A stretch of 60,233 bases of DNA, the filler included, from Globobulimina sp. (taxonomy: Eukaryota), in the NCBI GenBank assembly GCA_003354225.1. It is 13 parts of 13 records of this genome, joined end to end, with 100 filler letters (N's around TTAATTAATTAA, not from the genome) between each part and the next. Parts side by side here need not be neighbours in the genome. Positions count along the whole stretch, not along the records: positions 41,783 to 46,321 come from PIVH01001147.1; 12 more parts are not named here. One strand, written 5' to 3'. A program made the translations under genes and the position numbers. Numbering within the stretch: the first letter of the stretch is position 1; each line of letters starts with the position of its first letter. The notes below the pieces were generated by a model. The model was given only the letters and a program-made list of their open reading frames with translations, had not been told where the DNA came from and did not search any database. This document shows positions 7,407-60,203 of this stretch, in pieces.

Positions 7407-7437
7407 ATTGATATAATTACATGTGACTCGAATTGAA

Positions 7438-30800: not shown

Positions 30801-31036
30801 ATATGTTCCACAATAGGTTGTGTCGAGAATTGTCGTCCACCTTCCTCGCCAAGTAATTGAAAAAGATAACGGTTTTTTCGTTGATTTGTAAGATGTTGAC
30901 CTTCTGGCAAAGTATCGTCAGTTAGATTAAGCCAATTGTCAAATCGGAAAAACCAGGAACGAAAATTAGGTGGAGATTCACCCGAATTGTCCCAATATGA
31001 TGGAGGTGGTGGGAGATGCAAACGAGCATTAGCCAT
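27860..31036 (-). CDS. Gag-Pol polyprotein, N-terminal part (gag, zinc knuckles, protease, RT, RNase H, integrase HHCC)
   Basis: CDSCGSVGHYARCC, LDTGS, YIDD, VDASNVG, TDHSAL, ADALSR, HTGHPG..CGAC. Confidence 0.95.
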
Positions 31037-31118
31037 TATGATGAAAACAGATAAAGAGACGACAGTAACCACATAAAATGATGATGATAATAGCCAAGTG
31101 GTAATCGAATCAAAGATG

Positions 31119-38512: not shown

Positions 38513-40817
38513 ATGGGTGCGGAACTAACTAGATGTTGCGGTGTGGACGATGACTATTACGAACGAATAAACATAACCAAAAAGGGTGAAGGTACGGTGC
38601 ATACAATAGAATTAATATATTCCTTACAAAAAAACCAAAAAAAACCAACAAAAAACAGAGGATGAACAACGCGACAGTGAACGCAAGAAAATTAAAAGAA
38701 AATTAAAAACAATCTTAGTTCATAAAGACCCAGAATTCGCGAAATATATTAAAACAGAAAAGTATGAGCGATTGCAAAATATCAGTGCCACCAAAGAAGA
38801 AAATCTCTTAACTGCATTTGTGAAAAACGAGTTAGCGAAAGAAATCACATGGGACATATTGCTAGCAATTGCATCCAAAAAATATGGCGAAATCGAATTA
38901 AAAAAGCTACGCTCCAAAAAACACACCAATTCCTTGACTGATACGGGCAACGACGACGAAAAAAAGCAGCCAGAGCAAGATACAAAAGACAGCAGCGACC
39001 ACAGCAACAGTTACCATGACAACAACCACAAATACAAGAATTTGAAAGACTGCAATGATATGTTACCATTATCGACCTTAACATTTCGGTTTGCTTGGAA
39101 CAAATTGTACAAAATGATTCGCCCGGAGAGCTTACAAGAATTAGAGGCTGAAATGCAAATTGCGGTGAATAAGAATAAGCGCATTCGTGCCATGGGCAGT
39201 CGCTATGCATGGACCAACGTGACATTTACCGATGGCTTATTGGTGGATTTATACAATTCAAGTCTGAACAAACCGAAATTAAATCTGGACAATACCTGTT
39301 TGAATAAGTACGGAAAAGAGCTAGATTTGCACTCCAATTTGTTACTGACAGAGTGCGGTGCGAATGTCAAGGAAATCCACGAGATATTGTGGCCAAAGGG
39401 GAGGCGCAGGTTTTTAGTCAATAAGCAACAGAAAGCGTATAAAATGATCCCTGACATCCCTGGCTTTGACGATATTTGTATCGGAGGCTTGATTCAAAGC
39501 GGTGGCTATGGCATTGGCACCCCGTATCATTACGGCTCATTCGGTAATCATATACGCTCGTTTTGTATGCTCATAGTCGACGACAAAAGAAAGGTACAGT
39601 ACGCAATTATGCACATCCTCGCACACAATATATACACTTATATATCTATGCAGGTTCGTAAGATTCAAGTGGAGCCATCGCCGGATAATGGCGCCATCCA
39701 TGACGCGTATAAATGGTGTCGAAAATACCCAAATATCCAATTGATACAAAATGACAGCATCTTCCATGCGTTGTTGGTGTGTTTGGGAACGTGCGGTGTG
39801 ATGTATTCCGTATTTATAGAGTTGATGGATGCGCATTACTTATATGAGCGCAGATATATGATGTCTTGGAAACAATTTAAGCACAAAAAATGGAAAGCCA
39901 TTGATAAGAAATGCAAAAATGGTGACATTGTACGTCTGCAACTATACATCTCGCCATATTTGACCTATGACAAAAGGTATCGAGAATCGCCACCAATTAT
40001 TATAAACACGTATGAATATACGGAAGAAATGCCCAAACACCAAACAAATGAAAGGGACACTGGCCATCATAGATCACGCGATACGGAGCGCGCCACCATA
40101 TTAGCATCGCTGTTGGCGACCAGATATGCCAATAAATGGCCTCGATTGGTACCATTTATCCTGCAAATGAGCATGGAATGTACCTGTCATTCTGGTGTCA
40201 GCATAGCTGCAGCAGATGCCATATTATATGGCAATTATAATATTATTCCGACGCACAAGTCGGGCTTTGGAATGAGCGCAGCCTCATTTACCGGGATTGG
40301 CGATGATTACATTCGATTATGCAATATATTGCGGGCCAAATGCAGCAAACAAATTATTACACAGCCGGTAGCGATCCGATTTAGCAATCCGGGATTTGGT
40401 TTATTGAATTTTACATATAATCAATCTTCGGTGATTTTGGAACAGTCATTGTATGACTTTCGGAATAGTATATACTTTGAACCCAATGAGATTGAAAATA
40501 AATCCACTTCGCCGTCATCACCGACATCATCGGATAATAATAATTCGACACAGCAACAATTACAAATATGTACGTCGACGACGCCGAAACTATGGCATAC
40601 TTTGTTTAAATTACAGGATTTGTGTATGGGTGAAAAGTATAAAGGAAAACCGCATTTGGGACTCTATTTTCACGTCGATCAAAATATTTGGAAAAACCAT
40701 AATCAATCCTTTACGGAGTTTATTGAGATTTATAAAAAATTTAATTCGCATAAGATATTTTGCAATGCATTTACAAAGGAATCTGGACTTGATAAGTATG
40801 CACACTTTGTACAATGA
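38513..40817 (+). CDS. FAD-linked oxidoreductase (ALO/gulonolactone oxidase-like), spliced
   Basis: IRAMGSRYAW, IGGLIQSGGYG, LGTCGVMY and GKPHLG; probable ATG 38513 (MGAELTRCC); in-frame intron near 39593-39652. Confidence 0.75.
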
Positions 40818-41782: not shown

Positions 41783-42590
41783 TATTTTGTTTTCGTACTC
41801 CCCAGGTCCATTTTCCTATAGTGTTATTGTCATTATTGCCTAAATTTAAATTACAAGTTTTGATGAAATCTCTTACTATGAAACCATTGTTGTTTATCGT
41901 ATCGTGGTTACCTATGATTCCGTGAATATCGTTGCCTATATGGCCGTTAAAATCTCCTACTATAATGATTTCGTAATTGTTAAATTGACACCAGTTAATA
42001 TGGGAATTTAGACGTTGATACAGTTCAGTGTTTATTGTATTAGCTTCATCAAAACTTTGATTTTTAAAATATACAGCACATATCGCAGTCGGACCGTTAT
42101 TTTGACATAATATCCAATTATATAAATTACTTACTGAATCGGTTGCCCCATCAATGTCCAATTTGGTTGGTTTCATGTGGTTTTTTCCCCATATGCTAAT
42201 TCCACCGGCACTGTTACCTATTTGTAATTTATGGAAACCAATATAGTTATCAAAATTTTGTATGTCTAAAGGTGATTTACATTTTGTTTCTACGCAACAG
42301 ATAATATCGGGTGATAGACAATTAATATTATTCAACATGATATCAATTTTATTTTTTATAGAACATATATTGTTATATAGCATAGATATAGTTTTATATT
42401 TAATATAGTTTCTAATTTCAGATTCTTGTCTTTGGTGATGATGGCTTTGAACCCCATTTTGATATCGTTGTTGAATATATTGATTTGGCATGATAATTGG
42501 CACAGTGATAATTGGCATTTGTTTATCGTTTATATCGTTATAAATTTTATCGTAATATCGTATTACATTGCCGTCCCTTTCTATCCCCCC
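41783..42590 (-). CDS. LINE A ORF2, APE endonuclease domain (3'-partial; -1 frame relative to ORF1, first ATG at 42518)
   Basis: YNNICSI, CCVET, AGGISI, VGDFNGH, WTW. Confidence 0.85.
42568..42590 (-). promoter_or_regulatory. Putative -1 programmed frameshift cassette: G_GGG_GGA, 6-nt spacer, GGGACGGCAA
   Basis: Same geometry and same downstream motif as in LINE B. Confidence 0.65.
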
Positions 42591-45500
42591 TGGCCTTGTG
42601 TTAGTAATTTATCGTGTATACCGTTCACCCAGCATAATATTCCCTCTCGCCAAATCTCGTTTGCTAAAATTTTCTTTCCATTATCGGTTAGATGAATACC
42701 AAATGTAAATGATTCCAGAGCACTTTCCATATCGATTCCTGTAGTATTGTGTAATTTCGTTGTTTCTTCGTCTATCGCATGTGCCAATTGTATCGCTCGG
42801 ACTGGAATTTTTTCTTGTTGACCAAAATGAACCATATCTTCAGCGAAAACTGCTTCGACTTTTTTGATGAATTTTAGATTTCCTGGATCAGTCGGGTTAA
42901 CCATATAGCCTCCTGATATTGGATGTGTGATATTGACTAATATAGCAGCTTTCGGATTTAATCTTCGTACTTCTCGTATTATCGACATTAATTTTTCTCG
43001 TAATTGATTATATCGTCTTGTAGTGTTTGCTTCAATATTGCCTTCTCGTCTGAAGTAAGCTAACATATCGGTAACATCCATAACTCCTTTTAGTATTATT
43101 ATCGTTTCGTCTCCTTCAATCATAGCTGGGACACAATATTGCATATTTCGCCAACGTTGACTCACTAGACCTTTACCCAAAGTTTTCGTACCAATATATA
43201 TCAAATATCGTCCCCAATTATTTTCAGCATATGCTTCAGTTAGTGCTTCTTCGAGACCAACTGCTGTCGAATCACCTCCAATAAAAATTCGGATACCTGG
43301 TAATCGTATTTTCGTATCATCTATCGCTGGTAACATATTATGTAGTCGTCTTTCGTTTATCGTTCGAAGTTTTAGTCCAGGTAATATCGGTGGTTTCGTA
43401 TCGTCTGCATATATTCTATTACATCTCGTACACCATCCCATATTGAAATCTTCAACGGTATCGACGCACGATTTTAGATGCTGGTGAGGTAAAATTTGTT
43501 TAAAGTCTATAGTTTTAGAATATAGTAGTTTCTTACCTACGGTATCTCTTGTTTCCTTAATAGCATTTCGTTTTCTCGTATTTTCGTCACGTTCTCGTTT
43601 TTCTGTTTCTGCGGATCGTCCCGATGATGCCACACTTCTAACGCTACCTGCTACAGAATCTTGTCGTTGTTGTTGTTCGATATTTGAAGATCCATAAATA
43701 CCATATAGTGCTCGGATCCTTTTATTTTTATCGCTATCAGAAAGGTTATCGAAATCTCGATGTTGTTGTACTAGTTGAGGAGTTCGTCTACTAATGTTCT
43801 CTGATTGTGATTGTCGTTGATATGGTTTTCCTCTGTCTCTGTCGGCTTGATATTGTGATGTTGTTGGAGATGTACTTGATGTCGGTCTTATTGGTATATA
43901 TTGAGATGTTGGTGAAATACTGGATATGGGTCTATCGCCACGTTGTTGTCGCCTTCTGTTGTCGTATTCCTCTCTAGTTTTTCGTATCCATGGTAAATTA
44001 TTGATATCGAAATCCACATCATATCGTTTATGGAACCATTCTATACGAATATTTCGTGAATCGATTTTTTCAAAAGATACTGGTCGTCGTTTAGAATGTT
44101 GTTTGGATAATATCGAAGCGAAAGATGCAAGATCGTCAACGGTTGGACCTATGTTAGATCCTATCGAATGTATCGACCAATATCGCATATACATCATGAA
44201 TTGAGCATTGGCTTTGTTTTTTGTTTGCTGATCTTGTTTATCGTAATGTGAGGCATAAAAAGAACAAAGTGATGTTAGTATCGCACCAAATCTATTGTTA
44301 TCGATATCGTAATCATTCTCAACTTCTAATGTCGTCATATATATCGTTGGGTCTGAACCGTCAAATCCAATGCCAATTTTTTTATCTAGTGATAGATATC
44401 GAATTCGTAGATCTTGTGTTTTACCTATTCGTCCTAATAGTACTTTGATTGTTTCGTTTTGATTTGTTCGTAACGTCCAAAAATCAGAGAATCGTTCTGA
44501 TATCCATTCAATATCGAATTTGTGTTTATGGTCGTTATAGTTAGATATCGGGATTTCGTTCATAATATAGTCATAATGATCGCTGTCCATTTGTTGTGAA
44601 AGTTCATATAGTAATTCTTCATCTTCACATTCTACGCACATGAGGACTTTGATATAGTGATCGAAGCTTTTGTATAGAAAACCACTTTCGTATGGGTGTT
44701 CGTATTTGTCTTGTATATCCTCGTCAATAGTTGGTCTCGATTTTGGATAAATGTCGCCAATATCGCAATGGTGATTTAGAGAGAAAATATCTTTTCGCAT
44801 ACTTCCTACTAACAAATCGTTACCTCCTCTGTCGGTTATTTCTTCAGTTTCACCTTCTTCTGATGCTTCCGAAGGTATCGTTTCAGTTTCCTTTTCTTGT
44901 TTTTCTTGTTTTGATAATCTGATTTCTAGTTTCTCGAGTTTATCGGATAATTTAACTATAGTATCGCTTAGTGTACGTACTGATTCTTTAGATGCCGATT
45001 CTATCGATAGTTCGTCAATTTCGCCTTTTAATTTCGTATTCCAACCTTGTAATTTCGTACTCCATGCAGATACATTATTTTGGACTTCAGTCAGTATCGC
45101 TACTGATGTTTTATCGTCTTCAGGCATATTGTTCTCAATATCGTTTAATTTAGTTTTAAGCAAGTCAATTTCGGTTCCTATAGTATCGGTATATTGTTCC
45201 CCTGCTATAAGATTTTGTGATATGAAAGATGAATTTATCGTGGTGAAATTCGTACCATTTGCAACAGATTCCATACTGTGGAAACATATCGTTAATAATT
45301 TCGATGTTAATTCCATACATAATTTCGAATTAGTTTCGAATAGATCACATATCGCTCTAACATCTGCCGATTCATTGTTTTTTAATATAGCTAGTTTATC
45401 GTTGAATTGTTGGAGAATATCGTATATATTTTGTCGTAATTCTCTACATGTAGCAATATCGTTTTTCAAATATAATCCAGAATAATGGATGAATTTAGTT

Positions 45501-46024
45501 CTTTCGTTAGGATATCGTTTTTCGGCTTCATTTAGATTTGATTTAGCAATGTCTTCGTCTTGTAAGTCCAAATTATATTGTATTTCGCCAGTACTATCGA
45601 TTTTTCCATTTTCGTAAATAGCAGCTACTTTTTCTAAGATATCGTATTCACCTCGATCTATCGTAAGATGTTCCATTGCTGTTATAGTATCCAAGATTTC
45701 AAATGGGATATCTGAAACAGAATTAGCGTCATTTATAGTCATATATCGTTTTTTGTTATCGTTTATAGTAGTAAAACTCTTAATATTGTCAATAATAATA
45801 CAATCGTCCTTTTTTCCAATATCGCTACTAAGATTTCGTACAATTTGTGATATCGGTTTCTTTTTACCGGTTGATTTCGGCTCTTTCTTTCGTGATCTCG
45901 AATATTTTTTACTATCGAGGGGACTTCTCTTAGGCGTAATATCGTCACTAGTTTCATTTCCCTTTTCACTACTCATATTTACCTTATTATATCGTATTAT
46001 TGTTTTGTCGACTTTATTTTCCAA
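42581..46024 (-). CDS. LINE A ORF1: coiled coil, R/S/Q-rich region and C-terminal SGNH/GDSL esterase-like domain
   Basis: IFIGGDS (block I), IILKGVMD (block III-like), GIHLTDNGKKILA (block V-like); first ATG at 45976. Confidence 0.7.
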   Translation of the reverse strand: MENKVDKTIIRYNKVNMSSEKGNETSDDITPKRSPLDSKKYSRSRKKEPKSTGKKKPISQIVRNLSSDIGKKDDCIIIDNIKSFTTINDNKKRYMTINDANSVSDIPFEILDTITAMEHLTIDRGEYDILEKVAAIYENGKIDSTGEIQYNLDLQDEDIAKSNLNEAEKRYPNERTKFIHYSGLYLKNDIATCRELRQNIYDILQQFNDKLAILKNNESADVRAICDLFETNSKLCMELTSKLLTICFHSMESVANGTNFTTINSSFISQNLIAGEQYTDTIGTEIDLLKTKLNDIENNMPEDDKTSVAILTEVQNNVSAWSTKLQGWNTKLKGEIDELSIESASKESVRTLSDTIVKLSDKLEKLEIRLSKQEKQEKETETIPSEASEEGETEEITDRGGNDLLVGSMRKDIFSLNHHCDIGDIYPKSRPTIDEDIQDKYEHPYESGFLYKSFDHYIKVLMCVECEDEELLYELSQQMDSDHYDYIMNEIPISNYNDHKHKFDIEWISERFSDFWTLRTNQNETIKVLLGRIGKTQDLRIRYLSLDKKIGIGFDGSDPTIYMTTLEVENDYDIDNNRFGAILTSLCSFYASHYDKQDQQTKNKANAQFMMYMRYWSIHSIGSNIGPTVDDLASFASILSKQHSKRRPVSFEKIDSRNIRIEWFHKRYDVDFDINNLPWIRKTREEYDNRRRQQRGDRPISSISPTSQYIPIRPTSSTSPTTSQYQADRDRGKPYQRQSQSENISRRTPQLVQQHRDFDNLSDSDKNKRIRALYGIYGSSNIEQQQRQDSVAGSVRSVASSGRSAETEKRERDENTRKRNAIKETRDTVGKKLLYSKTIDFKQILPHQHLKSCVDTVEDFNMGWCTRCNRIYADDTKPPILPGLKLRTINERRLHNMLPAIDDTKIRLPGIRIFIGGDSTAVGLEEALTEAYAENNWGRYLIYIGTKTLGKGLVSQRWRNMQYCVPAMIEGDETIIILKGVMDVTDMLAYFRREGNIEANTTRRYNQLREKLMSIIREVRRLNPKAAILVNITHPISGGYMVNPTDPGNLKFIKKVEAVFAEDMVHFGQQEKIPVRAIQLAHAIDEETTKLHNTTGIDMESALESFTFGIHLTDNGKKILANEIWREGILCWVNGIHDKLLTQGQGG

Positions 46025-46424
46025 ATTCTTTGGTTTCTTTTTAAAGCTTTGAGTTCACTTGCCACACAACCGATTTTTCGTACGCTTTTCTCTCCTATGG
46101 TTTCTCTGTCGTCAGACAAACCGCAGAATATTCCCAAACTTTCTACATGGTATTTTTTGTCGTTGTGGGTAGATATATCGTGTAGATTACGGTATTGTGT
46201 TGTTTTCATTTTACGTTGTGCAAGATTTGATGCATTTAATTTCGTTGTTGACGGTCTATATTTCTTAGTACGCATCGACGCTACTGACGCAATTTTTTGT
46301 TTGTTTAATTTGTGCCTGAAANNNNNNNNNNNNNNNNNNNNNNNNNNNNNNNNNNNNNNNNNNNNTTAATTAATTAANNNNNNNNNNNNNNNNNNNNNNN
46401 NNNNNNNNNNNNNNNNNNNNNGTA

Positions 46425-47744
46425 ATGGGAAACAAGTTGAGTGGGATTGCCAACCGCAAAGACAAAACCAAAGAAGTCCAACAGACACTTGACAACCTTC
46501 CAGGACTCGTTTGCGTCACTGATAATTTACCTGCGGCTGCGGCACCGTCTATCGATGAGGAATTAAAAACTAGTGAGCAATTTGAAGAATATTTCAAACA
46601 AATAATAAGGAAATGCATAGCGTGCAAGGCACAAAGTATTGACTTAATACCGCCAAACATGTCAGGATCTTCTATGCCATCCTTTAAATTCCCTTATACT
46701 TTGTTCAAAGAGTGTTCCTCAAACTTAGTGGAATTAAGTATAGTATGGCCGCAGCCGCAGCGTACTACACAAGATTCCAACGCAACCAATTCATTTCCAT
46801 CAGATATATTTGACCATTTACCAAATTTAAAAACTCTAAACTTAGGAAGATATTCATTGCCATATTTATCAGATAAAATAGGAAATTTAAGCAATTTAGA
46901 GTCATTATATTGTTATGGTTCACAAATTATGTGCTTTCCGCGTACAATGTTTAAATTGAAGAAACTTACTAAATTTGACCCGTATTGCTCGTATCAACTA
47001 CATTATCTTCCATATGAAATGAAAGAATGCCCATTGAAGGACTCGAGGATCTCAACTGGTGCCCTATGGAACAATTATAAAAATAAGCAGTTATTTGCAC
47101 CATTACCGCGCTATCCACACACATTTGTGGCTGAAATTAATGATTTTGTGTTCAATCAGCAACAGTTGAAAAGTTATATGTGTGGTAATTGTGCATTGAG
47201 CGATAATTTGAATGAGTTGATTTTTAGCTTTGCATTTGATAGTTGCCATTGTACCTTTTGTTCAATCTGCAAATGCAATATTATCAAAGAGTATGTTTAT
47301 TATATTTGGGTATTTGAAAGAATTGGAACGGATTCTGTTGGATTATTAGGGCGAATGTGTCCAAATTGTATTGAAAAACGTGTAAAAAGCAAAGATTTTA
47401 TTGCCAATAATAAGAAATGCGATGTTTCAGATGGAACGGGTTGGAGTGAAATTAATTGGAGTGAGAATGTTGGAGAAAATGAAAGATTTTTGTACAATAA
47501 AAAAGGAAAAACGACATCTGCAAAAACCAAATGTGTCTATGAAAGAAATGAAACAGATTTCTATAAAATTCCACCAATGCGAGTTTCATGGAAATATACA
47601 GGTTTTGAGTCAAGTGATTATAACATGCACAATGTAGTAAAGAGTTGGATTAAATTTTGGAGGTATAATTTGTTGATTGATTTTGAGGGCTATGAGTTAT
47701 GTACAAATACTCAAACTGATGAGGTTAATGTGATATTCATATAA
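46425..47744 (+). CDS. Leucine-rich repeat protein with Cys-rich C-terminal region
   Basis: LPNLKTLNL, IGNLSNLESLY, LKKLTKF; MGNKLS myristoylation-like start. Confidence 0.75.
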   Translation: MGNKLSGIANRKDKTKEVQQTLDNLPGLVCVTDNLPAAAAPSIDEELKTSEQFEEYFKQIIRKCIACKAQSIDLIPPNMSGSSMPSFKFPYTLFKECSSNLVELSIVWPQPQRTTQDSNATNSFPSDIFDHLPNLKTLNLGRYSLPYLSDKIGNLSNLESLYCYGSQIMCFPRTMFKLKKLTKFDPYCSYQLHYLPYEMKECPLKDSRISTGALWNNYKNKQLFAPLPRYPHTFVAEINDFVFNQQQLKSYMCGNCALSDNLNELIFSFAFDSCHCTFCSICKCNIIKEYVYYIWVFERIGTDSVGLLGRMCPNCIEKRVKSKDFIANNKKCDVSDGTGWSEINWSENVGENERFLYNKKGKTTSAKTKCVYERNETDFYKIPPMRVSWKYTGFESSDYNMHNVVKSWIKFWRYNLLIDFEGYELCTNTQTDEVNVIFI

Positions 47745-47782
47745 TAAAAACTCGTCGTTAAGACTGTATATTTATAATTAGG

Positions 47783-48967
47783 TCAATTTTGTAGAATAAA
47801 TGCCCAGTTAAATGCATCCACAGCACTGACCTGCGCGACACAAGCAATTGGTGTAGAAACCCAGGACGCATTCCAAACCGCAGAAAATTCCGCATAACAT
47901 TGCGGATTCATAGCATTTTGATATATTGCCTTCATTTGGTTATTCACAAACGATATAATTTCTTGTTTAATATTTGCATATTTATTAGTACTATCGGTTA
48001 AAATTACATTTTGATAAAAATACATCAAATATCTCATAAATATCCCTTTAAACTGTGATTGATCACCGCTTGATTCCACCGCTCTGTCTGATTCTTGTTC
48101 GTGTAATATATTATTTATGCCATTTTTCTGTGTCACTAAATTCTTCATCACAGATTGAATAATATTCCATGATACGTCCACAAAGCTCGCATTATGATTA
48201 TCAATCAAATACATTTCGGCTAAACCACCTAATATTACACCTTGATTATATAACCATTCTGTTTGATGATTGTTGTTACAATTTTGCTTATTTGAACTAT
48301 CCATTCCGTCATTAATTAACCACTGTTGATTTATCATTGATTTTCCTGCTAAATTACCGTTTTGATAAAACCAATTCCATAATAAATTGAATTCATTCCT
48401 ATATTTTACATCATTTGTAAGTTTATATAATTTGGCAGTATTCACCAAACCTTGTTCATTGGTTATTGCATTTTTATAATCATTTGGTTTCCAAAATAAA
48501 CCACCACCACAAGTTGATGTATCCCACGCATTTTGCCAAACATAATCGAAAAATTGCTGCGCTTTGGTTAAATATGTTTTGTCGCCTTTATATTCATATA
48601 AACGTATCATTGTTAACGACCACCATTGAATGTCGTCAAAACCTTGCTGGATTCGCGTGGTCTGAGCCTTTGTTACCTCATTGATTGTATTGATAATATC
48701 TTCGCCGCAGAGGTTTGATAACTGGCAGTAATTTATTAATCCTTCGACGGTATTTGCCCAATTCCACCAACCTCCATCATCGTTAAACTTTTGGGATCGT
48801 GAATTATAAAATAACTGTTGCACATTATTTACAGCACGACATGAGATATATTGATTTGATAATTTTAAATTGGCACATGCGGGCGGAACGGTTCCGTTAT
48901 TACAATAATTTTGAGCCGAGGCAATATTATATATTGCCAATAAACAAACAGCAAGAAAGGAAGGCAT
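47783..48967 (-). CDS. Secreted glycoside hydrolase family 76 (alpha-1,6-mannanase-like)
   Basis: FDDIQWW, CGGGLFW, YKNAITN, WLYNQGVILG, QFKGIF; signal peptide. Confidence 0.9.
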   Translation of the reverse strand: MPSFLAVCLLAIYNIASAQNYCNNGTVPPACANLKLSNQYISCRAVNNVQQLFYNSRSQKFNDDGGWWNWANTVEGLINYCQLSNLCGEDIINTINEVTKAQTTRIQQGFDDIQWWSLTMIRLYEYKGDKTYLTKAQQFFDYVWQNAWDTSTCGGGLFWKPNDYKNAITNEQGLVNTAKLYKLTNDVKYRNEFNLLWNWFYQNGNLAGKSMINQQWLINDGMDSSNKQNCNNNHQTEWLYNQGVILGGLAEMYLIDNHNASFVDVSWNIIQSVMKNLVTQKNGINNILHEQESDRAVESSGDQSQFKGIFMRYLMYFYQNVILTDSTNKYANIKQEIISFVNNQMKAIYQNAMNPQCYAEFSAVWNASWVSTPIACVAQVSAVDAFNWAFILQN

Positions 48968-49008
48968 TGCTCAGTGACAAGAATTGACTGGGTCTGGTAA
49001 CTACGAAG

Positions 49009-49704
49009 TTAACCAAAAATAACACTTTGCAATGATAAATAATTCTCATCATTGTGTGATTTTGAACCGATAAAATCGGCCCAAATGAGTATACCGTCAG
49101 ATTGCAATACATTGGCTGCAAAGTCACACACTTTCTCAAAATAATTTTGAACGTGATTTATTGCAATTTGACTAAAAACATGTGTATATTTATTATAATG
49201 TTTTTCATCCAAACCATCCACAAACGAATTACATTCAAATGTACATCTTTTTTGTAAGTCCGTATCATTTTCTTTTAGCAGCAATCTCATTGCTTCTTCA
49301 ATATGATATTCAGTTAAATCTATGCCTAACATATAACATTGAGTCAACTTTGATATTTCAATGGATGGGCCACCTTTACCACAACCAAAATCAATTACAT
49401 TTGAGGCGGAACTTATATTACTTTTAGCAATCATATATTTACTTAATTCTGACGCTGACTCAACGAATGATAATTTTGGCAATGACGAATCGAGTAAATG
49501 TGGGAAATAACCAGGATGAAAATTACTTTCTCCCCATAACTCATTGTATAATGATGCATTCTCACTATCACTATAATAATTGGTTATATTTGCATATTGA
49601 GATAATATGCTTTGAGAACATAAACAACGTCCATTTGCAGCCTTATTCATCAGTCTTGCTGAGTGACGTCTGGTTACTGTTTGTAGTGATTTTATTGATC
49701 TCAT
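49009..49704 (-). CDS. Class I SAM-dependent methyltransferase (possibly C-terminally truncated)
   Basis: LWGESNFHPGYF, VIDFGCGKG, LGIDLT, LQSDGILIWADF. Confidence 0.75.
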   Translation of the reverse strand: MRSIKSLQTVTRRHSARLMNKAANGRCLCSQSILSQYANITNYYSDSENASLYNELWGESNFHPGYFPHLLDSSLPKLSFVESASELSKYMIAKSNISSASNVIDFGCGKGGPSIEISKLTQCYMLGIDLTEYHIEEAMRLLLKENDTDLQKRCTFECNSFVDGLDEKHYNKYTHVFSQIAINHVQNYFEKVCDFAANVLQSDGILIWADFIGSKSHNDENYLSLQSVIFG

Positions 49705-50074
49705 TTTGACGCAGAATTAGTTTGATATGAAACTAATGAAAGATTATGAGAGAGTTAGAGTTAAACTAAAAGTTTTTTACAAGAAAAAAACAACGTATTT
49801 ATTAACGTTTCTATTGTGACTGTTAAACTACTGTCATTGTAGTCAGTGTCAAGATTTTGACAGTAAAGGTATTCAGAAGCAGCAAAAAGGCGACATTTAC
49901 AAAATTAAATATAAAGTAATTAAATAAACGGATCGCTATTTACAATTAAATATATAAATAAATAAATCAAATGTACTTAAATAAATGTTCTTAAATAAAT
50001 GAATGGTTCGGTTCGGATTCATATCAGTTTATAATATTGAGACTAATTCAGTCGTTTCTGTAATGTTACAGCAG

Positions 50075-50482
50075 TTATTCGGTAACAACTACTGGTTTAA
50101 TTTCAGAAGATAAGGTTGGTTTAGTCTCTTGTAATAAGATAGCTTCATTCAAAGCAGTTGCAACATCTGCGCATTCATCAATTAATAATTTAATTAATGG
50201 CTGACTTAACTCGATAACAATAAAATGGCCCGAATCATGCGCATCTTTTAAAGTTTTAACAGAAATATGTTGATTTACTGATTCTAAATCTGTTGCCAAA
50301 TCTATACTTATATCAGAAAAATCAACTAAATCAGTTATATTGACGCCATTCTGTAGATCATAAGTCTGTTTCTCACCTGATGTAATTTGATGTGTTCCTA
50401 AGTCAAATGGTAAAGTATTAGTTGCATCGAATTGAGCTTTGATTGATGGTGATTGAGCTGTGTTGTTTGATGTTTTTTTCAT
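50075..50482 (-). CDS. Hypothetical protein
   Basis: ORF with protein-like composition from MKKTSNN; no motif recognised. Confidence 0.35.
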   Translation of the reverse strand: MKKTSNNTAQSPSIKAQFDATNTLPFDLGTHQITSGEKQTYDLQNGVNITDLVDFSDISIDLATDLESVNQHISVKTLKDAHDSGHFIVIELSQPLIKLLIDECADVATALNEAILLQETKPTLSSEIKPVVVTE

Positions 50483-52501
50483 TTTGATATTATTAATGTT
50501 TAAGAATAGTAATAAATTAATTATAAGAAGTAAAGTTAATAATGAGTGAACATTATGAATCTCATAATTATCTGCCAATTTTATCATTTCTCTTGCATTC
50601 ACTCATAATTAGCGCCAAATCACAATCAATCTACATTAGCGTACAGATATAAAATATGGAAGAATTGAATTATTTTCGAATCATTCGCACTTTCTTACTG
50701 TTCAACTGTTAAAGCTACAGTTTTCAGCAAAAATGCCAAATGAAGATAGTTGAAATAATGAATGATTTAATAAAATTATTTAAGAAAAAATAATAATACA
50801 ATTTGATTTAATTTTGATTATAAGTGTTAAGGAGAGACGATATTTGTCGAACAATATCATCTGTTGCTGTTGCTGTTGCATTATTTCTTTGTTGTTGATT
50901 CGCAGCATTGTTATTTCTAATATTTGCGCCATGTTCATCCAGCTGTTCACATACATCCANNNNNNNNNNNNNNNNNNNNNNNNNNNNNNNNNNNNNNNNN
51001 NNNTTAATTAATTAANNNNNNNNNNNNNNNNNNNNNNNNNNNNNNNNNNNNNNNNNNNNTCGTAGCTAGCAGCAGCAGGCAGGGCAGCAACTTGCGCTAT
51101 TTTTGTTATTTTATTTATTTATATATATAAGATTTGAGGAAGAGCGGAAGAAAAAAAGAGAGAGATATGAATCCAATATACCAATTTTTAATAAAGAAGA
51201 AAGAATAAATAAATAAATAAACCAAATCAATCCATAAAATGACGTTGTCGAGACAGCCTCAGCCGAATTAGGAACCTGTCAGGCACTGAGTTATAAAGAG
51301 ACGAAAAGGCATGACCCCAAGTTTCGACTCTAGTTACTGTCAGTTAAAGGCGACAACGTGTATTTTGGCCAACGACGGTTGATATTTGAGCCAAAACACC
51401 TATCCGTAATATTCGCACCAAAATAATCAAAATTATAATCACCAAAACCATTTTATAATAACCATGCTGCATTTCAATGTCTCTGAAAAAAGTGTTAAGT
51501 TGAAGTTTTTGTTTGACTAAAAAAAAGCAAGATTTTTACATTTAACTACAGTCAATAGATTATATTTGTTGCTTATTATTTACGAATACTGTATGGATGC
51601 CATTAACAACCAATGCCATGGACAATGTTTCGTATGAAACAAAATCGGAAAAAAAGGAAAAGGGAAAGAAAATACAATTGAATATGGAAAGATAAACACA
51701 GTAAATTGATGTTGGATGTTATCATTAGTGAAATACAGAAAACGAGAATATCACACACCATATCAAAACATTTTTGTTTAACCACTGCTTTTTATGTTAA
51801 CACAGTGATAAGTCTTTATTGCTGGAAAAATTGGTGAGAAAAGTAAATTTCTTAAATATGAAGTTAGTCGAGTAAATGATGATATTATGATTGAACAAAA
51901 TAATTTATACTTGTTTTCAAAATATACTTTTGGGATTTTGGAACTCTGCGATTCTGTTTCTCTGCAACGAATTTGTTACCATAGAACGTTTTTGAGACAC
52001 AGCAATTCATTTGTATATTGATGCAAAGTTCTAAAAGTCCGGGAATTCCTAAAAACGACAATGATTATGAAAAGAAACTGAGCGACAATGATTTTGAAAA
52101 TTAGTATAATGCGAAATTTTGTTTATTCAGAAAATAATATTAATTGAATTACATTTTAAAAGTAATCTTTCATTTTTATGTTGCGTGCTGTTATGTATTT
52201 AAATTTCAATTGAGCGCAAAGCATTGCTGGTTGCTGGCAAAAACAATAATATCTAAGATCTTAAAAAAAAATAATCATCCCAATCACAACCGACAGCCAC
52301 CACAAACCCACCCTCCCGTTCCCTGCCAGCCACAACATAGCCCCCTGCCCGCCCCGCCAACCACAACACACCCGCACAGCCAGCCACAACCACTTGCAAT
52401 AATATCGAAATAACATTTATTTTGCTTAAGAAAAGAGAGTCCGAATGGGTAATTTTCTGCGTTTATAAAAAACAATCATACTTTTGTTATAGGCGATGAA
52501 T

Positions 52502-53482
52502 TCAGATTGAATATTTTTGCAACAAAAAGAAAACAAATGGTATTTCATAAAATTCGTTCCAAATATAAAAAATAATTGAAAATAATAAATGAAAAAAAAA
52601 GCAAAAAGCAACCAACCAAAAAATAACTTCCAAAAAGAATATTGATGTTCCAACTGCGACAACCAGCTCACAATGGTTTGATGTCCGATTCATTACTAAC
52701 AAAAAGCGATTCTCATTGACTTTCATATTGTGTTTCATCTTTAAAGTGCTGATCACTCCGATTTCTTGCGTATAAATATCACATTTTCGGATTTTAATAA
52801 TCCATTCATGACAGCCAGCATTTAACCCATTTGAGGACAACAAACATATTTTATCATTTAAAAAAGTAATCGAATCAAATGCCACCGCAAACTTTGGTTT
52901 CTTTTTCTTTTTCTTTTTCTTTTTTTCTTCAAATTTCTGATTCTGAACAATATGTTTGCGAATTATCACTGCGTCATTAGATTCTATATATTTTTCATCT
53001 GAATTTGCTTTTTTCTCTTCTGGAAAGGACGGTTTTTTCATACAAAAAAATTGCGGTGGATTCGCGATAACTATGGCTGGCGAATAAATATCTAATGATG
53101 GAGTAAAAGCATCGCCGTCATCCGAACTCGACTCGATCACCGTATCATCACTTCTCAGTCGATCGAGATGGAGTTTGGCGTCATTTAGTTTACTTTCATT
53201 ATTATTATAATCCGATTTTTTCAACGTTGCAGTAAATGGTAATGGTTGGCGATAAAACATATATTGGATATCTTTGGATGAAAATTGTTCAGATTGCATT
53301 ATTTTGTCGACTGCGACATCATTTATAGAAAGTAACACATCGCCAATCATAATTCCTAATTTAGCGCCAAGCGAATTTTCAATCACATTGAATGCAATAT
53401 TTTCCTTTTTACCGTCGTAGGAAATGAGAACAAATGCAACGCCTAACAGTCGTTGTGTGATTTCTACCGAATAGTTAGCCAT
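52502..53482 (-). CDS. PDZ-domain protein with the start of a SPRY-like domain; true coding likely ends or splices near 52700
   Basis: LGVAF..NVIENSLGAKLGIMIGDVLLSIND (PDZ); GCHEWIIKI..QEIGVI; the tail is low-complexity. Confidence 0.65.
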   Translation of the reverse strand: MANYSVEITQRLLGVAFVLISYDGKKENIAFNVIENSLGAKLGIMIGDVLLSINDVAVDKIMQSEQFSSKDIQYMFYRQPLPFTATLKKSDYNNNESKLNDAKLHLDRLRSDDTVIESSSDDGDAFTPSLDIYSPAIVIANPPQFFCMKKPSFPEEKKANSDEKYIESNDAVIIRKHIVQNQKFEEKKKKKKKKKPKFAVAFDSITFLNDKICLLSSNGLNAGCHEWIIKIRKCDIYTQEIGVISTLKMKHNMKVNENRFLLVMNRTSNHCELVVAVGTSIFFLEVIFWLVAFCFFFHLLFSIIFYIWNEFYEIPFVFFLLQKYSI

Positions 53483-53527
53483 AGTCAGTGACTCAGTAAA
53501 CAAAAAACAAAAAACAGTGACTAAAGA

Positions 53528-55090: not shown

Positions 55091-55696
55091 CAGCACAATC
55101 TCGTCGTGTCCGCGATGACAGGCTTGGATTAATGGCGACCCATTGTCGCACTGGATAGGATGGGATAGGATGGGATTTATATAATTATTATTATTATTTA
55201 TTATCAACCAATTCGATCCGCAATCCGCCACACGCCATCGTCCTGATAATATTATATTTGTTACATTCACAAAACACAAAACAAAACAAAACAAAAACAT
55301 AATCAAAACGTATCTTGCTTTTCCAGGTCACATGATTTAAGACCGAGGCAGCTTACTACAGTTTTTCAACATATCTTAACATTTTGTGGCTTATTTAGAT
55401 GGCATGTACAAACAAAAGGGAATTATAATTTGATGATTAGGAAATTGCAATTAATTCTAACGTAATTTAATAACTCGTCGTAGCTAGCAGCAGCAGGCAG
55501 GGCAGCAACTTGCGCTATTTTTGTTATTTTATTTATTTATATATATAAGATTTGAGGAAGAGCGGAAGAAAAAAAGAGAGAGATATGAATCCAATANNNN
55601 NNNNNNNNNNNNNNNNNNNNNNNNNNNNNNNNNNNNNNNNTTAATTAATTAANNNNNNNNNNNNNNNNNNNNNNNNNNNNNNNNNNNNNNNNNNNN

Positions 55697-56367
55697 TATT
55701 AAGACATTTAGTTGATAAATATACGACTGAAACAGACAGCAGAGGGCGCAATTTATATCACGGAATATCATGCGTAAGTGCGCCGATTGTAACTGAAATA
55801 GATAATTTGAAAAAACAAATAATTGATTTAGAAGAAAGACTAAAAGATTTAACCACTAAATCTCAGTCCAGGTATGAATCTGAGTCAGATAAAACGAAAG
55901 CAGATGAAATATTATTAGATATTAAAGGAGTTATTAAGGGATCAGACAATGACAGGAGAAATTGGCAAAAAGCCAAAAATACTTTCTATGTCCGACCAAC
56001 TATACAATCACGAGTAAATTCAGTTCCTGAAAGGAAATATATGCAAAAATATGAAAAATTAACTAATAAGCCTGAATTGGAATTAAAATTACAAAAATGC
56101 GGGCGTGAAATATATCATGGAATATCATGTATATGTACACCCTTCGACAATGACTTATCAATTATGTCATGCTTCGATTATCATGTAGAATTATGCATTA
56201 GCTCCGAGTCAACATGGGCATATTGGGGAAAGCATTATAGACCTAATGGGTGGATTAATTCAATCTCAACATCCGATAATATTAATAAACATAGTACAGG
56301 AAGGATTAGATCGGCATTTAGAACAAGTAATAAATCATTAACATATGACCCTAGTAAGGGAAACTAG
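55697..56367 (+). CDS. LINE B ORF1 C-terminal part
   Basis: Open from the contig edge to TAG 56365-56367; coiled coil and a duplicated GRxxYHGISC motif. Confidence 0.7.
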
Positions 56368-56381
56368 CAAGGGACGGCAAA
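56358..56381 (+). promoter_or_regulatory. Putative -1 programmed frameshift cassette: G_GGA_AAC, 6-nt spacer, GGGACGGCAAA
   Basis: Canonical X_XXY_YYZ heptamer in ORF1 phase, directly before the stop; ORF2 is in the -1 frame. Confidence 0.75.
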
Positions 56382-59300
56382 ACCCGAATACACATTAATA
56401 TTAATAACGACGAAAGTAAAGAAAAAATTAAAGATGAAATTGAAACAATTAAAGATAGAAAAGAATTCAAAACTTTATCTATTTTATATAATAATATTTG
56501 TTCTATTAAAAATAAATTTGATTTGATTGATGAGAATATAAATAAATTAAAACCAATGTTGTTATGTTTTGTTGAAACTAGATTAAAAACTGTATTAGAT
56601 GTACATGACTATAATGAGTATGTCGGCTTCCATAAGATGCAAACAGGTAGGAAAACTGGTGGAATAAGTATATGGGGTCATGAAACTATCAAACCAACTA
56701 AACTAGATATTGACGGTTTTAATGATGACATTAGCAACCACTATTTATGGGTTTTATGCCAAAATGTAGGACCTGTAGCTATCTGTACTGTGTATTTCAA
56801 AAACCAAAGTAATAAAGATAATAATACACATTCATTCAACTTTGAATTAAGTCTTAGATTAATAAATCATATTAAATGGTGTATGAAACAAAACTATGAA
56901 ATCATCATAGTAGGTGATTTCAATGGTCATATTGGAAATGACATATATGGTATTAAAGGGAATCACGAAAACATAAATGATAATGGTTACTTAATAAGAG
57001 AATTTATTAAAAACTCCAATCTTATGCTTACAAATGATTCTGACAAAACGAAAGGCCTATGGACTTGGGGATTCCAAAAACAGAATACAAAACCTCAAAT
57101 ATTAGACCTTTTATTAAATTCTCATACGAGTAAAGTCAAATCTATGTATATAGATGAAACAAATACTCAATTAGGTACAGGAAATGCGGATCATTGTTTT
57201 ATCTATGCAGAATTTGACATTCTGCAAAATAAGAAAAACAAATCCGTTAATATTAATATTAATAATGACAAAAAGAGATGGAATATAACTGACGATATTA
57301 ATTGGAAACCATTCAAAGACAAATTAACTCAATTAGCAACAATTGAAGAAGAAGATATTGACGAAAATACTATATTGAATCATATAACAATTGCAGCCGA
57401 ACAAACAATTGGGTATAAAAAAAAACCCAATAAAAAAGCAAGACTGTCAATTAGAGCCAAAAAATTAAAATCAAAAATTACAGAATTAAGAAAGCAATTA
57501 AGACACGACAATGGTGACAAAAAGATATTATTAAAAGAACTATTTGAAACCATAAAAGATCAAAGAGAATTACGACAAAGATCTGAAATGGCAAGAGTAG
57601 AGAAGGCGCATAATAAATGGCTTGCTAATCCACGAAGAAAATTTCATCAATTATATAATACGATGAAACAATTAAAAAGAGGGATCAGAGAACCAGTAAC
57701 TTTATTAGATAATAATAAGGAACCAATATATGGTACCGAAAACAATAAAAATCATTTATCATCATTTTGGAACGATATTTTTACACTAGGCATCTGGCCT
57801 GAGGCAAACGACGAAATGAAACGAGTCGGATTAGATAATATAATAAAAGGAAATGACAGAATTGAATTAGAAAAAGATATAACAATTAAAGAATTAAATG
57901 AAGCCATATCCAGGCTAAAAAACGGCACTTCTGCAGGGACTACTAATATCCCTCCTGAATTCATAAAAAATTGGCCAGCAGAAATGAAAGAAAATGTGTT
58001 ATTACTCTTTAATAGATGGTATAATACAGGGTACTACCCAGATATTGGCAAAGTACAAGAAGTAACACTCTTACACAAAAAGGGATCAAAAAGTAAAATA
58101 ACAAACTACAGAACCCTGTGTTTAGGGTGTAATTTATGTAAAGTATATTTAACCATTCTCACAAAAAGATTAGAAAAAACAACTGAAGAGAAGAACATAT
58201 TAGGAAATATTCAACATGGATTTCGAGCCAATAAACGGATCGAAGACTGTATTTTGGTAATACAACATACAGTAATGAAAGCCAAAAGATTATCAAAAAT
58301 TAAGAAAAGCACCTTAGCTTTACTCGATATATGTAAAGCATATGATAGAGTATGGCGAAAGGGGCTGTGGAAAAAATTAAGAGACTATGGCTTCCCTGAA
58401 AAATTAGTGAGAGCTATAGAAAGTAGTTATCATAACCCACAAGCAGTAATATCGTTCCAAGACATAGTAACAGAAAAATTAGATATGGAAGTAGGTTTAA
58501 GACAAGGGTGTACAATGTCACCTAGCCTATGGAATCTATATATAGCTGACTTAGGCCGAGAAATAGAAAACAGTAATTTAGGAATTGAAATAGGATCTGA
58601 AGAATGCTCAAAAATAATTTCTGGTATATTCTTTGCAGATGACATGTTATTATTTGCCTCTTCAGAATACAATATGACAAAATTATTAAAAATAGTTGGC
58701 AATTATGCTCAACGTTGGAAAATTGAATTCTCAGGTCCCAAGAGTTTAATTATTCCTATGAAAAGAAATATAGATAGCGAAAAGCTATGGCAATTAGGAA
58801 CAATGTATATATCAGAATCTGACACTAAAACTATTAATATTAAAGAAGAGAAAGAAGCGAAATATCTAGGAATCACCATTGCCAAATCAGGAGTAGATAT
58901 ATTATCACAACATAGAAAGGAATTAGCTGTAAAAACAAGGAAGGAAGTATATAAATGCTTCCAACCAGCATCAGCAACAGCAAGACAAGCCGTATATGGC
59001 ACAAAAATTTGGACAACTTATGTACAACCAAAAGTACTACATGGTATCTCTGCTATAGAATATACCAATAATACTTTTAAAAAAGTTGAAGTCCAACAAA
59101 GAGAATTTATTAGAATGATAGCTAAACTTCCAAGACATACCCATAGAGCGGTATTATATGGAGAAACAGAAATTATGCCTATGCAAATGGAAGCAGATAA
59201 AAGGACAATTAATTATTTATCTCATGTACTAAAACTTAATAATAACAATTTAGTTAAAATAGCTATAAATGAACAATTAATAACTTTTTATAACTATCCA

Positions 59301-59897
59301 AGAAAAAAATCTTGGATTAATCATGCTATTAATTGTTGTAATAAATATAATATCGATTATAGATATATTCCATCTCCAAGTAAGATAAAAGAGGTTATTA
59401 AACAATCATGGATACTTGAATATAATTCCATGTTATTAAATGCACCTACATTAAGAATATATAAACATAAAACCATCCCAAAAATCAATAATAAATTAAA
59501 TCTACATAATGGGTCCGAATTCTGGCTGAAAGCAAAAGGAGGAACCTTATTACTGAATGATAGGAAACATAAACCCTGCACAAGATGTAATAGTAATGAA
59601 ATTGAGAATATTGAACATTTACTATGGTTCTGTACCGATAATTACAGTAATAATGATTATAAAAATAAAATACTCAATATTTGGGGATTATTACCCCAAG
59701 AAATTGAAGGATTAAAAAAACCAATAATAATTCCTAATACTCAAAATCAGTATATTGATGCAAGTATTAAATGGTTATTTGATGATGGCACTCCAGGATT
59801 GGTGATGAACCAAGCCGGACAAATCATCAAACTTCTATATAATATGCGCCCTGAAATAAAAGCATATAATATAATAATTAATGATAGTAACGATTAA
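56358..59897 (+). CDS. LINE B ORF2 (APE endonuclease, reverse transcriptase, CCHC knuckle); frame opens at 56358 with no ATG until 56556
   Basis: YNNICSI, VGDFNGH, ADH; QHGFR, LDICKAYD, GLRQGCTMSP, FADD, YLG; CTRC..ENIEHLLWFC. Confidence 0.92.
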   Translation, partial: GKLARDGKTRIHININNDESKEKIKDEIETIKDRKEFKTLSILYNNICSIKNKFDLIDENINKLKPMLLCFVETRLKTVLDVHDYNEYVGFHKMQTGRKTGGISIWGHETIKPTKLDIDGFNDDISNHYLWVLCQNVGPVAICTVYFKNQSNKDNNTHSFNFELSLRLINHIKWCMKQNYEIIIVGDFNGHIGNDIYGIKGNHENINDNGYLIREFIKNSNLMLTNDSDKTKGLWTWGFQKQNTKPQILDLLLNSHTSKVKSMYIDETNTQLGTGNADHCFIYAEFDILQNKKNKSVNININNDKKRWNITDDINWKPFKDKLTQLATIEEEDIDENTILNHITIAAEQTIGYKKKPNKKARLSIRAKKLKSKITELRKQLRHDNGDKKILLKELFETIKDQRELRQRSEMARVEKAHNKWLANPRRKFHQLYNTMKQLKRGIREPVTLLDNNKEPIYGTENNKNHLSSFWNDIFTLGIWPEANDEMKRVGLDNIIKGNDRIELEKDITIKELNEAISRLKNGTSAGTTNIPPEFIKNWPAEMKENVLLLFNRWYNTGYYPDIGKVQEVTLLHKKGSKSKITNYRTLCLGCNLCKVYLTILTKRLEKTTEEKNILGNIQHGFRANKRIEDCILVIQHTVMKAKRLSKIKKSTLALLDICKAYDRVWRKGLWKKLRDYGFPEKLVRAIESSYHNPQAVISFQDIVTEKLDMEVGLRQGCTMSPSLWNLYIADLGREIENSNLGIEIGSEECSKIISGIFFADDMLLFASSEYNMTKLLKIVGNYAQRWKIEFSGPKSLIIPMKRNIDSEKLWQLGTMYISESDTKTINIKEEKEAKYLGITIAKSGVDILSQHRKELAVKTRKEVYKCFQPASATARQAVYGTKIWTTYVQPKVLHGISAIEYTNNTFKKVEVQQREFIRMIAKLPRHTHRAVLYGETEIMPMQMEADKRTINYLSHVLKLNNNNLVKIAINEQLITFYNYPRKKSWINHAINCCNKYNIDYRYIPSPSKIKEVIKQSWILEYNSMLLNAPTLRIYKHKTIPKINNKLNLHNGSEFWLKAKGGTLLLNDRKHKPCTRCNSNEIENIEHLLWFCTDNYSNNDYKNKILNIWGLLPQEIEGLKKPIIIPNTQNQYIDASIKWLFDDGTPGLVMNQAGQIIKLLYNMRPEIKAYNIIINDSND

Positions 59898-60202
59898 CCA
59901 TTATTAATTAATGGATTTTCATGGATTTTCATGGATTCTCATCAAATTCACCTGTTTGACCACAAGGATGATGGAAATCAGATGAACAACAAATGACAAC
60001 CAGAGTCCCGATTGATCAAAACAGATGAGATGTTGAATGAATCCCAATACAATCAAGTGCCAAATGAATTATCTCTGTGAATATTATATTTCTATTTTTG
60101 TATTTCATATATTATTAACATGTAATTAATTAATGTGTATTAATATTTCACAAGCTATACTTATTTATTAAGTGCTTTCAAAATAAAATTTGCCGTCCCA
60201 AA

Positions 60203-60203
<1 letters not shown>

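Follow-up and report, generated by a model that had tools for sequence, protein, structure and literature searches.

The stretch of DNA analysed here, a 60,233-base window of the Globobulimina sp. assembly GCA_003354225.1, is composed of 13 separate contigs in descending length (4544 to 4537 nt, with a period of ~4.64 kb), joined by six-frame-stop linkers of the form N44-TTAATTAATTAA-N44. Two of these contigs carry long interspersed nuclear elements (LINEs), LINE A and LINE B, and the present work deals with the junction between their first and second open reading frames (ORF1 and ORF2), where a short island common to both elements is, in LINE B, the reverse complement of the 3' end of the element itself. 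LINE A occupies the minus strand of the contig at 41783..46321, which, according to the linker pattern and the ORFs, holds a 5' leader, ORF1, the junction and the 5' part of ORF2, while LINE B occupies the plus strand of the contig at 55697-60233, delimited by the linker pattern. As the window consists of unlinked contigs, with no physical linkage between segments, both elements are independent loci, and ORF2 of LINE A is truncated because its contig ends and not by decay. No further LINE copies beyond A and B were found in the window by tblastn and blastn.

ORF1 of LINE A comprises 1157 codons from stop to stop (42581..46054, minus strand, coding 46054-42584). Its ORF2 frame (41783..42608, minus strand), shifted by -1 relative to ORF1, starts with ITNTRPGGIERDGN and encodes an N-terminal linker followed by an APE (apurinic/apyrimidinic) endonuclease domain. 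In LINE B, the C-terminal part of ORF1 is present (55699..56367, plus strand, 222 codons, open at the contig start), and ORF2 (56358..59897, plus strand, 1179 codons) encodes an APE endonuclease and a reverse transcriptase, beginning with GKLARDGK directly after a TAA in the -1 frame (56355-56357). The product of LINE B ORF2 matches Pfam RVT_1 (E 1.5e-29) and, under the cutoff of that family, Exo_endo_phos_2 (E 1e-4), and its PDB matches are the R2 and LINE-1 ORF2 proteins (E 2e-21 to 6e-11). These elements are APE-type retrotransposons without long terminal repeats (non-LTR).

A protein search with LINE B ORF2 retrieved three close relatives (P0001-P0003; 62, 55 and 55% identity), whose predicted N-termini begin at ATGs, in two cases within the APE domain, and do not cover the junction. 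The DNA of two of the three was obtained in one scan of genome contigs: L001 (10,408 nt; ORF1 657-6398, ORF2 frame 6380-10129) and L002 (5,392 nt; ORF1 177-1496, ORF2 1497-5075). Three other loci were too distant or too incomplete to help, namely L003, whose 3' end lies off its contig, L004, without ORF1, and L005, with a weak endonuclease-like match only. As a separate observation, L003 is a distant LINE (25% identity, from another metagenome-assembled genome, MAG) with ORF2 in the -1 frame and an overlap of ~180 nt with ORF1 (1204-1384). Among A, B, L001 and L002, the ORF2 products are 55-62% identical in pairwise comparison, and the ORFs are intact in all elements examined.

Structure and conservation of the ORF1-ORF2 junction

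In LINE A, the coding part of ORF1 ends with the candidate slip site G_GGG_GGA (42584..42590, minus strand), which lies in the ORF1 frame immediately 5' of the stop codon TAG (42583-42581) and formally fits X_XXY_YYZ, so that the minus strand reads caG GGG GGA TAG AAA GGGACGGCAA from 42590 to 42568. LINE B reads aaG GGA AAC TAG CAA GGGACGGCAA on the plus strand (56356-56380), with the slip site G_GGA_AAC at 56358..56364, also in the ORF1 frame, followed by the ORF1 stop TAG at 56365-56367. Both junctions have TAG-N-AAGGGACGGCAA in common. The island itself, GGGACGGCAA in LINE A (42568..42577, minus strand) and GGGACGGCAAA in LINE B (56371..56381, plus strand, with the GGGACGGCAA part at 56371-56380), is the predicted 5' strand of the long-range duplex described below. 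In L001, the junction reads CGG GAA AAC TAT TAA GGGACAACAATTTTACTT, with G_GAA_AAC as the heptamer, and the gap between heptamer and island is 6 nt in each of the three elements: TAGAAA in LINE A (42578..42583, minus strand, including the ORF1 stop), TAGCAA in LINE B and TATTAA in L001. The exact GGGACGGCAA was found in none of the five relative loci fetched, L001 carrying a variant of it.

ORF2 is placed in the -1 frame in three of the four elements (A, B and L001), and in these its frame is open back to the heptamer, which lies inside the overlap between both ORFs (28 nt in A, 10 nt in B and 19 nt in L001); the overlap of LINE B consists of the heptamer and the stop only. Regarding the heptamers, G_GGA_AAC is listed among the most shift-prone ones, and the natural variants of X_XX include G_GA (PMC5009743).

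When the window was searched for the pattern TAGNAAGGGACGGCAA with up to two mismatches, three matches were obtained against 0.08 expected, a number that was reached in 0 of 100 shuffles. The third match (60190-60205, minus strand) corresponds to the island in reverse complement and is located at the end of the 3' untranslated region (UTR) of LINE B. Between A and B, the island amounts to 12 exact nucleotides, seven of them G/C, compared to a longest identical run of 10 nt, A/T only, within the homologous part of ORF2. Nucleotide similarity between both elements (67.5% over 628 nt) starts ~100 nt (B) to ~190 nt (A) past the stop, and their ORF2 products are 60% identical over 213 amino acids (E 4e-85), from the APE domain on, while the best BLASTP E-value between their ORF1 products is 0.39. 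A sequence-only reading of this DNA had reported both junction sequences, an ORF2 in the -1 frame and open through the junction in A and B, and a nucleotide island standing between ORF1 ends and flanks of no recognisable similarity. Rereading of both junctions, the ORF maps and the comparisons above bear out these three points, with flanks that cannot be aligned and TAGNAAGGGACGGCAA matches far above chance.

The same reading had proposed that the island is selectively conserved as nucleotides, and this also holds. In the ORF2 frame of A and B, it is read as Arg-Asp-Gly (RDG) through the codons AGG-GAC-GGC, which represent 5.7%, 27% and 12% of their codon families in the elements, resulting in a joint probability of 0.0019. 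In L001, the Gly codon is changed to Asn (GGC to AAC), giving RDN, with matching changes 3.9 kb away, and the residue following RDG or RDN is K, N or N across the elements. A third-position comparison among relatives has L001 as its one informative case, and there the pattern is the opposite of freely varying third positions with a fixed RDG. The constraint on the island acts on nucleotides, at the RNA level, and not on the protein.

Local folding of 120 nt from the heptamer gave no structure beyond shuffles in any of the four elements (z -0.44 in A, +0.51 in B, +0.37 in L001 and +0.96 in L002), and nothing in L001 or L002 was matched by Rfam at E up to 1. A SNORD99 match on another contig, seen with Rfam in the part of the window from 41783 to 60233, reached 25 bits against a gathering score of 60 and was taken as chance.

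Complementarity between the junction and the 3' end

The last bases of the LINE B 3' UTR, TTTGCCGTCCC (60189-60199, plus strand), are the exact reverse complement of GGGACGGCAAA at the junction and constitute the 3' strand of the duplex. The UTR ends with ...AAAATTTGCCGTCCCAAAC and passes into (TAC)n up to the contig end, TTTGCCGTCCC being followed by AAA and C (60200-60233). The (TAC)n run may be either the tail of LINE B or its target. L001 has GGGACAACAA at the junction and TTGTTGTCCC at the 3' tip, the latter at the position homologous to TTTGCCGTCCC of LINE B; its 3' UTR ends with ...AAGTAAAATTGTTGTCCCAAAAA, and an exact complement of 18 nt links the junction (6399-6416) with the 3' end (10295-10312). 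When B and L001 are compared, the junction change from GG to AA is paralleled by a change from CC to TT at aligned positions of the alignable 3' end, so that L001 has two A-U pairs where LINE B has G-C pairs.

The 3' ends of B, L001 and L002 can be aligned through a hairpin, the stretch ...AAAAT(T)TG[CC/TT]GTCCC and a short A-run (A3 in B, A5 in L001 and A8 in L002), after which they diverge, with unrelated sequence following the tails of L001 and L002; thus, the complement is the last part of the element itself. The hairpin, as obtained from the alignment of the 3' ends and folding, corresponds to ACTTATTTATTAAGT in LINE B (60159..60173, plus strand) and to ACTTATATTATAAGT in L001 (~10265-10279) and L002 (~5330-5344), with the consensus ACTTAT(A/T)TTAT(A/T)AAGT in the three elements, just 5' of the terminal pairing strand, and may be a recognition element for the reverse transcriptase.

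The complementarity was compared with dinucleotide shuffles of the 3' UTR, where the run of 18 in L001 was reached in 0 of 5000 (maximum 13) and the longest run of LINE B, of 13, in 3 of 5000. When a 60-nt window at the junction was paired with every window downstream of it, the 3' end came out as the best partner by duplex energy, both in LINE B (first of 372, z -4.4) and in L001 (first of 387, z -6.8). In the reverse comparison, the junction ranked first for the 3'-terminal 25 nt, in LINE B among 871 windows (z -5.3) and in L001 among 2033 (z -8.2). The core duplex has 11 bp and -19.7 kcal/mol in LINE B and 18 bp and -25.1 kcal/mol in L001, compared to -14.8 and -8.9 kcal/mol for swapped partners, and a cofold of junction and 3' end is 28-30 kcal/mol more favourable than the separate folds. 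Taken as a whole, the pairing is very probably a selected feature of the RNA.

LINE B has a second pair of complementary segments, AATACACATTAAT (56387..56399, plus strand) and ATTAATGTGTATT in the 3' UTR (60129..60141, plus strand), whose antiparallel order is the one by which the main helix could continue around the 3' hairpin, forming a three-way junction. This 13-nt pair is AT-rich, thus less certain than the core duplex, and has no clear counterpart in L001. For LINE A, the complement of the 8-mer GGGACGGC is absent from the contig, the 8-mer occurring three times in the window, at the two junctions and at the 3' tip of LINE B. The 3' end of LINE A lies beyond its contig and would be expected to carry TTGCCGTCCC.

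L002 and a second junction layout

L002 differs from the other three elements, as its ORF2 is in frame with ORF1 and separated from it by a single TAA, in the context TTA TAA CAA TTA (L002 1485-1510). From this stop to the APE domain, the frame stays open for 56 codons, with zero in-frame ATGs and six out-of-frame ones. The island is absent from L002, and its longest run complementary to the 3' end, of 6 nt, was matched in 4789 of 5000 shuffles. The best partner of its junction was an AU-rich stretch of the 3' UTR (-15.8 kcal/mol, first of 375, z -3.5), in which no exact run exceeds chance, and its 3' tip pairs best with a weak site close to the beginning of the contig and not with the junction. 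The duplex is judged to be absent or unproven in L002.

Consequently, the -1 frameshift mechanism is not family-wide, in disagreement with the sequence-only reading, which had extended it to the whole family, as the phase of ORF2 varies among relatives, a refuting condition that this reading had itself set, and the in-frame member has neither island nor duplex. The type I readthrough signal, known from tobacco mosaic virus, is a stop codon followed by CAR-YYA, and CARYYA also works with UAA (PMC3542737). L002 resembles it in having an in-frame stop followed by CAA UUA and an open downstream frame, which would be compatible with readthrough; it differs from the usual signal in that the stop is UAA and not UAG, and in belonging to a LINE and not to a plant virus. 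It looks as if recoding is general in this LINE group and takes two forms, -1 frameshifting and readthrough, the duplex going with the -1 layout.

Proposed mechanism of ORF2 translation

In the proposed model, LINE A and LINE B would be members of an APE-type LINE group whose ORF2, with its endonuclease and reverse transcriptase, is made as an ORF1-ORF2 fusion. Ribosomes would slip at the end of ORF1 on the heptamer (G_GGA_AAC in B, G_GAA_AAC in L001 and G_GGG_GGA in A), and the stimulator would be a duplex starting 6 nt past the heptamer, in place of a local hairpin or pseudoknot. Its strands would be the island and the terminal 11-18 nt of the 3' UTR of the element, ~3.8 kb apart on one RNA. 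Stimulatory structures usually begin about 5-9 nt past the heptamer. LINE B has zero in-frame ATGs, and one out of frame, ahead of the LYNN motif and APE domain, where the ORF2 homology among the elements starts; therefore, it needs either recoding or non-AUG initiation.

Target-primed reverse transcription starts at the 3' tip, so that the pairing would tie ORF2 synthesis to an intact 3' end, and the ORF2 protein, when engaging this tip, could undo the pairing and thereby shut off its own synthesis. We infer that the duplex forms in the RNA and that, by pairing with the 3' terminus of its own element, it stimulates -1 frameshifting into ORF2 and the production of an ORF1-ORF2 fusion, to which a probability of roughly 0.55 is given. 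The regulatory logic that may follow from it, where the 3' end of a LINE acts as a cis-acting antisense strand driving the -1 shift and only RNAs with an intact 3' end make reverse transcriptase, is placed at about even odds.

Regarding known systems, a long-distance contact with the 3' UTR is needed for the -1 frameshifting of BYDV (barley yellow dwarf virus), RCNMV (red clover necrotic mosaic virus) and PEMV2 (pea enation mosaic virus 2) to be optimal (PMC5893793). The LINEs have the same arrangement as these viruses: the heptamer is found where the first ORF ends, the ORF encoding a polymerase is shifted to the -1 frame, a sequence beside the shift site pairs, in the LINEs by prediction, with the 3' UTR ~4 kb away, and the distant partner lies where the polymerase begins copying. 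They are cellular elements known here from their sequences, unlike these plus-strand RNA plant viruses, in which the interaction was demonstrated experimentally. In its mode of action, the proposed LINE signal works like the BYDV/RCNMV/PEMV2 type, and it is not a member of it by architecture or host.

A plain linear duplex is also sufficient in frameshifting by antisense RNA or locked nucleic acid (LNA) oligonucleotides (PMC3001050, PMC1616946), where RNA oligonucleotides of 12-18 nt annealed past the slip site gave maximal frameshifting in vitro (PMC3001050), an optimum that matches the 11 and 18 bp seen here. These oligonucleotides are artificial and act in trans, whereas the LINE strand would come in cis from its own 3' end. 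The arrangement is further similar to the gag-pol of retroviruses and LTR elements, where the first ORF is structural or RNA-binding, the second encodes enzymes and is shifted by -1, the overlap of both holds a heptamer, and a fusion is made at a set ratio; gag-pol uses local pseudoknots or hairpins, and its element class and integration mechanism differ from those of LINEs (PMC5009743).

Among LINEs themselves, SART1, the Paramecium LINEs and mammalian LINE-1 are likewise bicistronic APE-type elements with an ORF2 lacking an ordinary translation route. For Paramecium, groups with +1 frameshifting or reinitiation and groups with readthrough of the ORF1 stop were inferred from consensus sequences (PMC5405496). 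Related groups of one genome can thus employ distinct types of recoding, and L002 stands apart from A, B and L001 in a similar way. The passages concerned with these three systems describe neither a -1 heptamer nor pairing with the 3' end (PMC3894237, PMC5405496, PMC5009743).

Several points weigh against the frameshift model. The evidence is computational and comes from four elements, with both strands of the duplex visible in two of them (B and L001), and the duplex of LINE A is a prediction only, as its 3' end lies beyond the contig. The covariation consists of two adjacent transition pairs, the commonest type of substitution. The L001 heptamer is an imperfect X_XXY_YYZ, and that of LINE A fits the formula but is atypical, a caveat already raised in the sequence-only reading that stands; G-triplets at the A-site position function poorly in eukaryotic test systems. 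Furthermore, in-frame ATGs are present in A and L001 past the stop and ahead of the APE domain, which makes a conventional ORF2 start possible. In LINE A, the first of them, which the same reading had pointed out at 42518, is confirmed at 42516..42518 (minus strand), 65 nt past the ORF1 stop, as an alternative start. An out-of-frame ATG-TAA mini-ORF (42564-42569, minus strand) is also present in LINE A, 15 nt past the stop, overlapping the 3' edge of the island and preceding the in-frame ATG. As to architecture, the viral signals combine a local stem-loop with a short kissing interaction (PMC5893793), whereas for the LINEs no local stem-loop is predicted and the distant strand itself would form a helix of 11-18 bp. 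Finally, in the available text of a review on the biogenesis of non-LTR proteins the word frameshift does not occur, and the way in which ORF2 translation is initiated is presented as an open question, suggesting that an ORF1-ORF2 fusion would be unusual for LINEs (PMC3894237).

Alternative explanations

The duplex could serve another purpose, which also counts against the model. In the alternative that survives best, the duplex is real and has a different role (RNA circularisation or 3'-end protection, template choice or packaging, or control of termination), and ORF2 is translated by reinitiation or internal initiation. Complementarity and covariation are by themselves silent on function, and the in-frame ATGs of A and L001 ahead of the APE domain would suit such a route. 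In SART1, moreover, a downstream RNA structure affects ORF2 initiation at a UAAUG stop-start overlap (PMC3894237), and for mammalian LINE-1 an unusual initiation is thought to be likelier than bypassing (PMC5009743). Nevertheless, this explanation gives no reason for the exact 6-nt offset from the heptamer within an overlap of 10-28 nt in all three elements, nor for an ORF2 frame open back to the heptamer in each of them, and LINE B offers ahead of its APE domain a single ATG, which is out of frame. It is therefore considered unlikely.

A further alternative takes the recoding cassette of the sequence-only reading, of the form heptamer-TAG-NAAGGGACGGCAA, as a self-contained local signal, which would stimulate -1 frameshifting by itself, through local structure or pairing with the ribosome, throughout the family. 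The identity of the island in A and B next to unrelated ORF1s, with common spacing and -1 phase, agrees with it. However, no local structure exceeds the shuffled controls, the core of the supposed cassette is one strand of a duplex with the 3' tip, and the joint change of island and 3' tip in L001 is what a fixed ribosome-pairing motif would forbid; L002, in addition, has another ORF2 phase and no island. A cassette of this kind is improbable.

It could also be supposed that the inverted copies are sites for a sequence-specific protein binding double-stranded DNA, for example an internal promoter (at the junction) and an antisense one (at the 3' end), as a reverse-complement repeat is equally one DNA motif in two orientations, and the joint change in L001 would also fit a binding protein that co-evolved with its sites. 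Even with a subgenomic ORF2 transcript a start codon would be required, and LINE B lacks one; the fixed 6-nt distance from the heptamer would be left unexplained. Moreover, the match extends over 11 nt in LINE B and 18 nt in L001, in different directions, as expected of a helix kept at similar stability and not of a fixed site, making this explanation quite improbable. Conservation of the island for an R-D-G peptide at the ORF2 N-terminus, or by chance or decay in dead copies, is hardly credible, since, although RDG is read in the ORF2 frame of A and B, L001 reads RDN with a variable next residue, the codons are rare, the pattern matches lie far above chance, all ORFs are intact, and protein coding cannot explain the reverse complement at the 3' tip.

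ORF1 types and other features of the contigs

The ORF1 products of LINE A and L001 are related (30.5% identity over 1085 amino acids, E 6e-135), while those of B and of L002 have no match within the four-element set. One ORF2 lineage is thus combined with three ORF1 types unrelated to one another, with the recoding junction as the boundary of exchange, which fits the modular, reticulate evolution of ORF1 named in the title of PMC4120745. In the linker from the junction to the APE domain, coding conservation between A and L001 was limited to a weak match anchored at the APE start.

The C-terminal region of LINE A ORF1 has a Pfam match to Lipase_GDSL_2 (E 0.0095, 16.9 bits, under the cutoff of 32.9), and GDS and GIHLTxNGKKILANEIWRE blocks are conserved between the ORF1 products of LINE A and L001, so that this region appears to resemble a GDSL/SGNH esterase. 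Such an SGNH/GDSL domain defines the esterase-type ORF1 of LINEs (PMC3905857). No PDB sequence match was found for it, either with a single sequence or with a profile, and the whole L001 ORF1 gave no Pfam match at E 0.001. The L001 ORF1 (1913 codons) has an N-terminus ~750 codons longer than that of LINE A and a near-perfect tandem duplication of ~40 residues at about 1500-2100 (ESKDKE.NTILKELISIATNTNPVIDNTTNTETKTFISN).

The records of L001 and L002 are titled as gammaproteobacterial MAG, yet they bear LINEs. The gene content of L001, L002 and the window includes LINEs, Ty3/gypsy-type pol (reverse transcriptase, RNase H and an integrase zinc domain), a glycosidase of family GH76, an FAD oxidase resembling ALO and a RING finger, with 30-44% GC, the spots noted in the window being 27860-31072, 47783-48967, 38772-40817 and 462-1751. 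The contigs of L001 and L002 look like eukaryotic, possibly fungal, DNA binned as bacterial. An ORF of 457 codons at 6033-7406 (minus strand) has a weak tyrosine-recombinase match (Phage_integrase, E 2.3e-5, slightly under the cutoff) and may be part of a Crypton- or DIRS-like element.

Implications for LINE biology

Frameshifts for overlapping ORFs were reportedly proposed in older papers on LINEs. In the literature searched, which most subscription journals lay outside of, no retrotransposon was found to be described as having a long-range frameshift stimulator, and pairing of this kind is described there for plant RNA viruses only. The translation of LINE ORF2 is described as an open question (PMC3894237, PMC5009743), to which the present model, if true, would give a new answer, and it would represent the first long-distance recoding signal outside plus-strand RNA viruses. 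It would also be a convergent solution for ribosomes and a polymerase that move in opposite directions on one RNA, and would provide a physical basis for coupling the synthesis of reverse transcriptase to the integrity and use of the 3' end of its template. As the helix is short, linear and different between two natural relatives, it constitutes a readily testable system. Together, the frameshift and readthrough layouts and the three ORF1 types, on ORF2s that are 55-62% identical, make these elements a compact case of modular LINE evolution.

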